A stretch of DNA of 30,674 bases, from NCBI GenBank assembly GCA_023246325.1, contig JAHFIO010000001.1:1-30674 (forward strand), read 5' to 3'. Source of the stretch: Candidatus Uhrbacteria bacterium (lineage in GTDB: Bacteria; Patescibacteriota; Patescibacteriia; 2-12-FULL-60-25). The notes under the pieces are model-generated. The model had not been told where the DNA came from, ran no database searches, and worked only from the letters and a program-made list of their open reading frames with translations. Each line of letters opens with the position of its first letter. Positions within the stretch are counted from its first letter, which is position 1. A program made the translations under genes and the position numbers. This document shows positions 16,499 through 17,156 of this stretch, piece after piece.

Positions 16499-16810
16499 AT
16501 GAGAAAACTTTCAGCAGATGCTAAAGAATTTTTTCGCTACCTTTTGTATACACTCGTGCTTTGTGCATTTGTTGCCATGGTTTTTAGCCTTCTGTCAGGA
16601 TGCGGTGATGATCCAAATCCCGGCTCTTTGATTGATAACTCATATCCAACTCCCGGGGCTATTACCCTACCCATCAAGGACAATCCCGGGCATCATTCAT
16701 ATCTTGGTACAGCAGATAAAGCGTGCGCTTCCGCTGTGTGTAACGATCCAACACAGGGATCTCGAAATGTCAGCAATCCTGCCGAAATCACACTAAAATC
16801 ACAGAAATAA
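16499..16810 (+). CDS. Small putative lipoprotein 1, unknown family
   Basis: Signal peptide ending LLSG|C, 69-aa mature part with CASAVCND; GGAG at 16489-16492 supports ATG 16499. Confidence 0.8.
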   Translation: MRKLSADAKEFFRYLLYTLVLCAFVAMVFSLLSGCGDDPNPGSLIDNSYPTPGAITLPIKDNPGHHSYLGTADKACASAVCNDPTQGSRNVSNPAEITLKSQK

Positions 16811-16813
16811 CGT

Positions 16814-16838
16814 AAACCAGACATAAGTCGGGTTTTTT
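16814..16838 (+). terminator. Terminator after lipoprotein 1
   Basis: AAACC-a-GAC-ataa-GTC-g-GGTTT running into a T-tract; one mismatch in the stem. Confidence 0.55.
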
Positions 16839-16839
16839 C

Positions 16840-16868
16840 TTGACATTTTAACGTATTTCAGGTATGAA
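16840..16868 (+). promoter_or_regulatory. Promoter of lipoprotein 2
   Basis: TTGACA (16840-16845), 17 nt, TATGAA (16863-16868); AAAGGA at 16878-16883 before ATG 16893. Confidence 0.55.
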
Positions 16869-16892
16869 TATTAAACGAAAGGATACGATTCA

Positions 16893-17156
16893 ATGCGTAA
16901 CAACATGCTACCCCTCTTGCTCTCCCTCGTTCTTCTCCCCTCCTGTATGCAGGATGTGGAGCCCCAAAAACCACCAGTGGCTATTGATGAGCCAAGTGCT
17001 GGTTCAAATACACCTCCAAACGGTGTCTACACGGGTCCAAATCCCACGAGTGGGAGCAGTGACCACTGTGAAAATGCCGTGTGCAATGAGTTTTCTATGG
17101 AAAATCTCTTTACTATTCAACCCGTCGACATCCCCCTTCCTGCTGAAGAGCAATAG
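16893..17156 (+). CDS. Small putative lipoprotein 2, probable paralog of lipoprotein 1
   Basis: MRNNMLPLLLSLVLLPS|C lipobox, 70-aa mature part with CENAVCNE; SD and terminator flank this frame. Confidence 0.8.
   Translation: MRNNMLPLLLSLVLLPSCMQDVEPQKPPVAIDEPSAGSNTPPNGVYTGPNPTSGSSDHCENAVCNEFSMENLFTIQPVDIPLPAEEQ

Follow-up and report, generated by a model that had tools for sequence, protein, structure and literature searches.

Two small ORFs downstream of ftsQ in a Candidatus Uhrbacteria genome and the genus-restricted family of predicted lipoproteins to which they probably belong

Braun's lipoprotein Lpp is the precedent for a "ruler" lipoprotein, as its mature form of 58 amino acids (aa) sets the width of the periplasm by its length. 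It is an alpha-helical trimeric coiled coil which is cross-linked to the peptidoglycan via a C-terminal Lys. A different layout is found in LpoB of Escherichia coli, with a linker of tens of disordered residues. According to a bioRxiv preprint (10.1101/2021.01.05.425367), N-terminal disordered linkers are common in lipoproteins and are present in about half of the outer-membrane lipoproteins of E. coli; PMC7267771 indicates how the tether of LpoB and LpoP can present a small partner-binding part. We analyzed a 30,674-nucleotide (nt) stretch of a Candidatus Uhrbacteria bacterium genome (NCBI GenBank assembly GCA_023246325.1, contig JAHFIO010000001.1, positions 1 to 30,674 of the forward strand), hereafter called the window. 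On its plus strand, downstream of the mur-ddl-ftsQ cluster, lie two small open reading frames (ORFs), ORF1 and ORF2, which are followed by convergent DUF218 and RmuC genes. The reading that we favor, and consider fairly probable, is that ORF1 and ORF2 encode two of three genus-restricted, lipid-anchored and largely disordered envelope peptides carrying a small disulfide loop.

After cleavage at the predicted lipobox the mature chains would have 69 aa (ORF1) and 70 aa (ORF2). When aligned without gaps from the lipobox Cys, they share 12 identities (C1, D4, P7, P24, C42, A45, V46, C47, N48, P60, I63 and L65), with D in ORF1 and E in ORF2 at position 49 and the reverse at position 62; in each chain, C1 and C42 are separated by 40 residues. 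These identities, chain lengths and gap had been listed in an earlier model-made reading of the letters alone (the sequence-only reading), and translation followed by ungapped alignment reproduced all of them exactly. The number of identities expected from 20,000 composition-preserving shuffles was 5.6 +/- 2.0 (p~0.005); a BLASTP comparison of ORF1 with ORF2 alone was weak (E = 0.065). The differing synonymous codons reported at conserved residues were seen at eight of the 12 shared positions (C1, P24, C42, A45, C47, N48, P60 and L65). The two ORFs were also correctly described as rich in guanine plus cytosine (GC), with 44% in ORF1 and 50% in ORF2 compared to 36.6% in the window and 38% in the genome. 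The GC content at third codon positions (GC3) was raised too, to 0.34 in ORF1 (0.25 expected, z = 2.1) and to 0.48 in ORF2 (0.27 predicted from genome usage, z = 4.7), so the excess is only partly due to Pro/Gly codons, as the same reading had supposed. The long ORFs of the genome have an average GC3 of 0.26.

Judged by their sequences, the two ORFs belong to a genuine small protein family which has three paralogs in this genome and was found only in a single genus of ultra-small groundwater bacteria. It is defined here by six sequences, which represent four lineages. The third paralog (L002:1474-1740, minus strand; contig C3, 7784-8056) is an 89-aa ORF with the lipobox F-A-G-C, an acidic Ser/Asp-rich linker of 43 residues, the motif C-A-F-A-K-C-N-D and a basic tail. 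Its variants differ at 6-7 residues of the signal peptide and at no more than one residue of the mature part. The sister species, the only other species of the same Genome Taxonomy Database (GTDB) genus, encodes the 103-aa protein P0003 with the lipobox L-I-G-C. P0003 possesses C42 and the motif C-E-T-A-I-C-N-D, followed immediately by a second copy of a 9-residue unit, C-A-N-G-H-C-D-D-P, and downstream of this duplication the P, R and P-x-E-I-T elements have the same spacing as in ORF1. Its gene is considered a positional ortholog because it is found downstream of ddl-ftsQ and before DUF218-RmuC, despite five inserted genes. The FtsQ proteins of the two species are only 52% identical. With leave-one-out profiles, ORF1, the third paralog and P0003 each scored above all 1000 shuffles, and ORF2 reached p = 0.025.

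Two side observations concern these additional members. Two short public contigs show an overlap of 4 nt between the third paralog and the end of a gene upstream of it (at least 285 aa), a hint of translational coupling; in the present assembly the contig ends just upstream of the paralog, and the overlapping gene lies outside it. The GC content differs very widely within this single GTDB genus, with 38% in the present genome and 61% at the locus of the sister species (L076 / L007, genome G001).

The shared motif is C-x2-A-x-C-N-[DE], present in all six sequences of the four lineages. The residue after the Ala is V, M, I or K, so that the proposed CxxAVCN(D/E) head was kept in its framework and lost the invariance of V46. 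The distance from C1 to the first motif Cys is 40 residues in the ORF1 type, the ORF2 type and P0003, and 43 residues in the third paralog. As support, the sequence-only reading had named further copies that retain both the motif and the spacing. The third paralog and the sister ortholog do keep the motif, whereas the third paralog departs from the spacing. A stalk of fixed length (40 aa) therefore describes three of the four lineages, with the 43 residues of the third paralog and the 9-aa motif duplication of the sister protein as departures; in these sequences the 40-residue stalk is frequent and not obligatory. The recurrence of this distance in nearly unrelated linkers is suggestive, although four lineages, related as they are, do not suffice for a statistical claim. 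In the tail, Pro60 is invariant, and the I-x-L part of the predicted P-x2-I-x-L signature is found in ORF1, ORF2 and P0003 (as I-T-G-L) and is missing from the third paralog. Every member has a His 1-11 residues before the first motif Cys, and the number of free Cys is even in all mature chains. The C-terminal residue varies among members (K, Q, K, R or P).

The family had been presumed unrecognized, and indeed neither Pfam nor NCBIfam (both with E up to 10) nor a profile search of the PDB matched it. An exhaustive HMMER search of 1.84 billion protein representatives found three true clusters only; two long eukaryote-like repeat proteins were rejected, their score being a sum of weak repeats. 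A word-indexed search of 5.8 billion proteins returned a relative of ORF1 and the third paralog only. Six-frame profile searches of 127 genomes of the same taxonomic family and 400 of the same class produced near-chance matches without lipobox or motif. Searched as a DNA pattern, C-x2-A-x-C-N-[DE] had three occurrences in this genome and one in the sister genome, each within a small lipobox ORF. In the remaining 125 genomes of the taxonomic family there were 27 matches (about 0.2 each) compared to 17 for the reversed control, and none of them had a lipobox. In 28 other genomes of this taxonomic family, a small lipoprotein gene near ftsQ (up to 1.5 kb away) was not found. The sequence-only reading had proposed a search of related Patescibacteria; a distribution across them was not observed, and members were found in one genus only. 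Two more searches yielded candidates which were not retained: an ESM Atlas feature search pointed to unnamed small proteins and multihaem cytochromes (score of 0.85 at most, judged not credible), and single-protein scans of genome contigs and of Joint Genome Institute (JGI) metagenomes gave generic lipoprotein N-termini (Shewanella, Kistimonas) or nothing.

Selection on ORF1 was assessed against L019, a public contig of a closely related metagenome-assembled genome with about 94% DNA identity over the stretch, in which both ORFs are intact. The ratio of non-synonymous to synonymous substitution rates (dN/dS, omega) was 0.105, compared to 0.12-0.13 for ftsQ, ddl and the DUF218 gene, so the selection at the protein level that had been deduced from codon differences is real for ORF1. 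The mature part shows 23 synonymous and 7 non-synonymous changes, all other frames being worse, and it evolves more slowly (omega 0.064) than the signal peptide (0.33). The most constrained part of ORF1 is the stalk itself, with 17 synonymous and 3 non-synonymous changes (omega 0.03), which argues against a spacer of free sequence, at least between close relatives. The locus is present in three groundwater metagenome DNA runs only; the contigs from these runs mostly repeat the L019-type allele and supply a second allele, in which 10 of the 13 changes in the ORF1 stalk fall at third codon positions. An 88%-identical ORF1 protein was called in two public assemblies. We place the start of ORF1 at position 16499 because its GGAG is kept in L019, whereas the upstream in-frame ATG at 16487, used as the start in one public gene call (P0006), is not conserved. 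The n-region of the resulting signal peptide is charged, and its hydrophobic core spans 18 residues.

ORF1, ORF2, the third paralog and P0003 all pass a hand-written PROSITE-like rule for a lipoprotein signal, with a K/R n-region and a hydrophobic h-region. The canonical lipobox [LVI][ASTVI][GAS]-C is fitted by ORF1 (L-S-G-C), the third paralog and P0003. Both processing enzymes that had been named as a check are encoded in the genome: Lgt (PF01790, 152.9 bits) and LspA (PF01252, 85.9 bits). BamA and LpxC were not found in this 93%-complete genome, and the products would thus sit on the outer face of a single membrane. The genome also encodes three DsbA-like proteins (PF13462); the genes of two of them follow lgt, and these two proteins combine a C-P-x-C site with a membrane anchor at the N-terminus. 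The lgt gene is located on G000 contig C33 (~1807-2505) and the DsbA-like genes at L074:423-1115 and L074:1126-2016, with the sites C-P-A-C and C-P-F-C. The even number of free Cys, together with the DsbA-like proteins, makes an oxidized C42-C47 loop plausible. AlphaFold2 models of mature ORF1 and P0003 had a predicted local distance difference test (pLDDT) of 44.5 and 46.3, respectively, with essentially no secondary structure, and at these values a fold search was not worthwhile. In the ORF1 model the stalk stays below 50 and only the C42-D49 motif reaches 50-70. Such low values would be compatible with a disordered tether, as weak evidence given alignments of 6-7 sequences.

We propose the following scheme for the family. 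The precursor would be exported by Sec and lipidated by Lgt at the lipobox Cys, and the LspA cut would then leave a lipopeptide of 69-85 residues on the outer face of the cytoplasmic membrane. Its first ~40 residues, rich in Pro, Gly, Ser and Asp, would form a flexible and probably disordered tether. The last ~28 residues would hold the loop C-x2-A-x-C-N-[DE], mostly with a His ahead of it, and end in a short tail with Pro. The membrane-anchored DsbA-like oxidoreductases of the genome probably link the two (or four) free Cys into a disulfide loop of 6 residues. In this scheme the peptide is most likely a small envelope or surface ligand, and since the position directly behind ddl-ftsQ is conserved in both species, a role in the envelope or cell wall is slightly likelier than host contact.

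Several observations weigh against this scheme. The lipobox assignment comes from the hand-written rule, and the low AlphaFold2 confidence may reflect the thin alignment of 6-7 sequences and not disorder. Neither a DsbB nor a VKOR partner was found in the genome. None of the RNA runs contained the locus, and no direct evidence of expression was seen. The slot after ftsQ is variable, with five other genes in the sister species, so the neighborhood says little on function. Further points concern the membership of ORF2. A Pro at position -2 occurs in one of the 94 lipobox candidates of the genome, namely ORF2 (L-P-S-C); PROSITE PS51257 disallows this residue, which L019 keeps (L-F-P-S-C). A profile built without ORF2 scores it at 5.4 bits, and 2.5% of the shuffles reach that score. 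ORF2 is absent from a collection of ~15 billion proteins (two starts were tried for L019), there is no public gene call for it, and its GC3 (0.48 against 0.27) is far from the genome norm. Together with the weak BLASTP match to ORF1, an alternative plus-strand frame that is also open and a selection test limited to nine substitutions, this could mean that ORF2 is a chance look-alike or no gene at all, i.e., a GC-rich stretch with several open frames and a shared Pro/Gly/Ser composition. We give this possibility a small probability, since its eight-residue motif stands at the same distance from the lipobox Cys as in ORF1, with a chance expectation of ~0.2 per genome. Moreover, ORF2 is intact in L019, where one codon is deleted in frame and the alternative frame is shifted. 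Of the 9 substitutions, 6 are at third positions, and the 5.5 synonymous versus 3.5 non-synonymous changes are the best ratio among the open frames (~p = 0.03 against neutrality, by our own estimate from site counts). Within the motif of L019, M replaces V. ORF2 also has its own Shine-Dalgarno (SD) sequence, a perfect -35 box and a terminator, and its M-R-N-M-L start is kept in a third strain recovered from the groundwater contigs. From these coding patterns, ORF1 and ORF2 are probably both real genes, and ORF2 was probably missed by gene callers, the probable reason being its atypical codon usage.

In line with the model of the sequence-only reading, it is also possible, though unlikely, that the stalk is a ruler selected for length, which holds the disulfide loop ~40 residues (at most ~12-14 nm when extended) from the membrane for docking to the wall, an S-layer, a pilus or a host. 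The stalks of three of the four lineages have exactly 40 residues and are nearly unrelated in sequence; ORF1 and P0003 match in length only via compensating internal shifts, and the 9-aa duplication of P0003 leaves the upstream C42 and the downstream P/R/P-x-E-I-T spacing intact. However, the third paralog has 43 residues, the four lineages are few and non-independent, no partner was identified, and the conservation of the stalk sequence between close relatives (omega 0.03) is unexpected for a pure spacer. If true, this would be a minimal tethered surface ligand setting an envelope distance in an ultra-small, probably episymbiotic bacterium, where selection would maintain ~40 residues between the lipid anchor and the loop (disulfide or metal) and the linker sequence would change from paralog to paralog. 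A Cys/His metal site in the head, binding Cu or Zn at the cell surface and making the product a small metallo-lipoprotein or chaperone, appears improbable. The His contexts H-H...C, D-H-C, E-H-M-P-P-C and H-R-H-D-K-C, as well as G-H-C in the duplicated motif, would suit it; C-x4-C is not recognized as a metal-binding spacing, the position of the His is variable, no metal-handling genes lie nearby, and the extracytoplasmic DsbA-like oxidases of the genome would oxidize the Cys pair. We regard as very unlikely a tethered regulator of cell-wall or division enzymes similar to LpoB or LpoP. In its favor, both species of the genus have the gene behind the mur-ddl-ftsQ cluster, and the predicted lipid anchor and disordered linker are arranged as in the Lpo activators (PMC7267771). 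Nevertheless, there was no match to any Lpo family in Pfam or NCBIfam, the ~28-residue head has no predicted fold, the third paralog is located away from wall genes, the slot is variable, and no small lipoprotein gene was found after ftsQ in the 28 other genomes. A lipid-anchored, largely disordered peptide with a small disulfide loop remains our preferred reading of the family.

The layout of the locus is given in Table 1. The sequence-only reading had attributed a promoter, an SD sequence and a terminator to each gene. SD-like sequences for both genes, a terminator-like hairpin after ORF1 and a promoter-like site before ORF2 are visible in the sequence, while a consensus scanner reported only the terminator at 17152-17175 and a promoter-like site overlapping the start of ORF1. 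The scanner did not report the hairpin downstream of ORF1, the stem of which is perfect in L019, and it missed the promoter-like site upstream of ORF2 because the -10 hexamer lacks the final T. By sequence reading, an SD-like AGGA is located 9 nt before the ATG of ORF2.

Table 1. Features of the ORF1-ORF2 locus (window coordinates).
Feature	Position	Strand	Basis or remark
ddl	14591-15505		
FtsQ-like gene	15490-16341		
SD-like GGAG	16489-16492	+	6 nt before ORF1 ATG; sequence reading; kept in L019
ORF1, predicted small lipoprotein precursor, 103 aa plus stop	16499-16810	+	translation
ORF1 predicted signal peptide, residues 1-34, lipobox L-S-G ahead of Cys35	16499-16600	+	
ORF1 predicted lipidated Cys and 40-residue Pro/Gly/Ser/Asp-rich linker ("stalk")	16601-16723	+	composition
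ORF1 core motif C-A-S-A-V-C-N-D, C42 to D49	16724-16747	+	pattern match
ORF1 C-terminal tail, conserved Pro60 and E-I-T-L stretch	16748-16807	+	alignments
Terminator-like hairpin downstream of ORF1, 8 pairs with one mismatch, and T-run	16815-16838	+	sequence reading
Promoter-like TTGACA-17-TATGAA upstream of ORF2	16840-16868	+	sequence reading; conserved in L019
ORF2, probable small lipoprotein precursor, 87 aa plus stop	16893-17156	+	translation
ORF2 predicted signal peptide, 17 residues, atypical lipobox L-L-P-S before Cys18	16893-16943	+	
ORF2 core motif C-E-N-A-V-C-N-E, C42 to E49	17067-17090	+	
Terminator-like hairpin downstream of ORF2, 9 pairs and T-run, facing the convergent DUF218 gene	17152-17175	+	consensus scanner

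The slot between ftsQ and DUF218-RmuC (window positions 16342-17177) is occupied here by the two small lipoprotein genes. In the sister species (L076:4548-10213), one small lipoprotein gene shares the slot with a 387-aa gene that has no Pfam hits and with four genes on the minus strand, one of them a Methyltransf_21 gene. Between the present genome and L019, the synonymous divergence of ORF2 (dS of 0.13) is far below that of its neighbors (0.44-0.58), and similar peaks of identity exist elsewhere in the region. An RNA element beneath ORF2 was also considered. There was no Rfam match, and the 100% identity over 16938-17027 was equaled by similar peaks elsewhere in the 5.5-kb comparison, so this candidate was dropped.

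A large share of what is unexplained on the surface of ultra-small bacteria consists of small lineage-specific lipoproteins, some of which gene callers miss. The present family would be a clean minimal example, in which a chain of ~70 residues combines a single Cys loop with a recurring tether of 40 residues. It is at the same time a genus-restricted ORFan family without a predicted fold, observed in only four lineages, and it opens no general question.

Among the known systems, a surface lipoprotein of the candidate phyla radiation (CPR) comes from a genome of the same taxonomic family (L034:2-1258, minus strand, genome G030). The protein (more than 400 aa) carries seven 6-Cys modules in tandem, of the form P-C-G-x5-C-C-x4-C-x2-G-L-x-C-x4-C and located downstream of a Pro/Asp/Thr/Gly-rich linker, and it had no Pfam match with E up to 10. 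It shares with the present family this type of linker and the small disulfide units, and one module holds C-G-T-A-A-C-N, similar to the motif of our family; its modules have 6 Cys, compared to 2 in our family, and a relationship between the head and the module was rejected (hhalign probability of 0.2%). Lpp is likewise a small lipoprotein, whereas the family described here is Pro/Gly-rich and has neither predicted helices nor a conserved C-terminal Lys, and the ORFs did not match Pfam LPP. The activators of PBP1b, LpoB of E. coli and LpoP of Pseudomonas aeruginosa, have in common with the predicted peptides a lipid anchor, a disordered linker, a C-terminal interacting part and a neighborhood of wall genes. 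They differ in belonging to the outer membrane of diderms and in having folded domains that exceed 100 residues. The head of the present peptides has ~28 residues without a predicted fold, outer-membrane markers were not found in the genome, and the sequences are not similar. Generic bacterial lipoproteins, as defined by PROSITE PS51257, constitute a processing class and not a family. The mature part of our proteins matches no known family and ORF2 deviates by its Pro at -2, whereas the charged n-region, the hydrophobic core, the Cys after a small residue and the Lgt-LspA pathway are the features that ORF1 and its relatives would share with this class.

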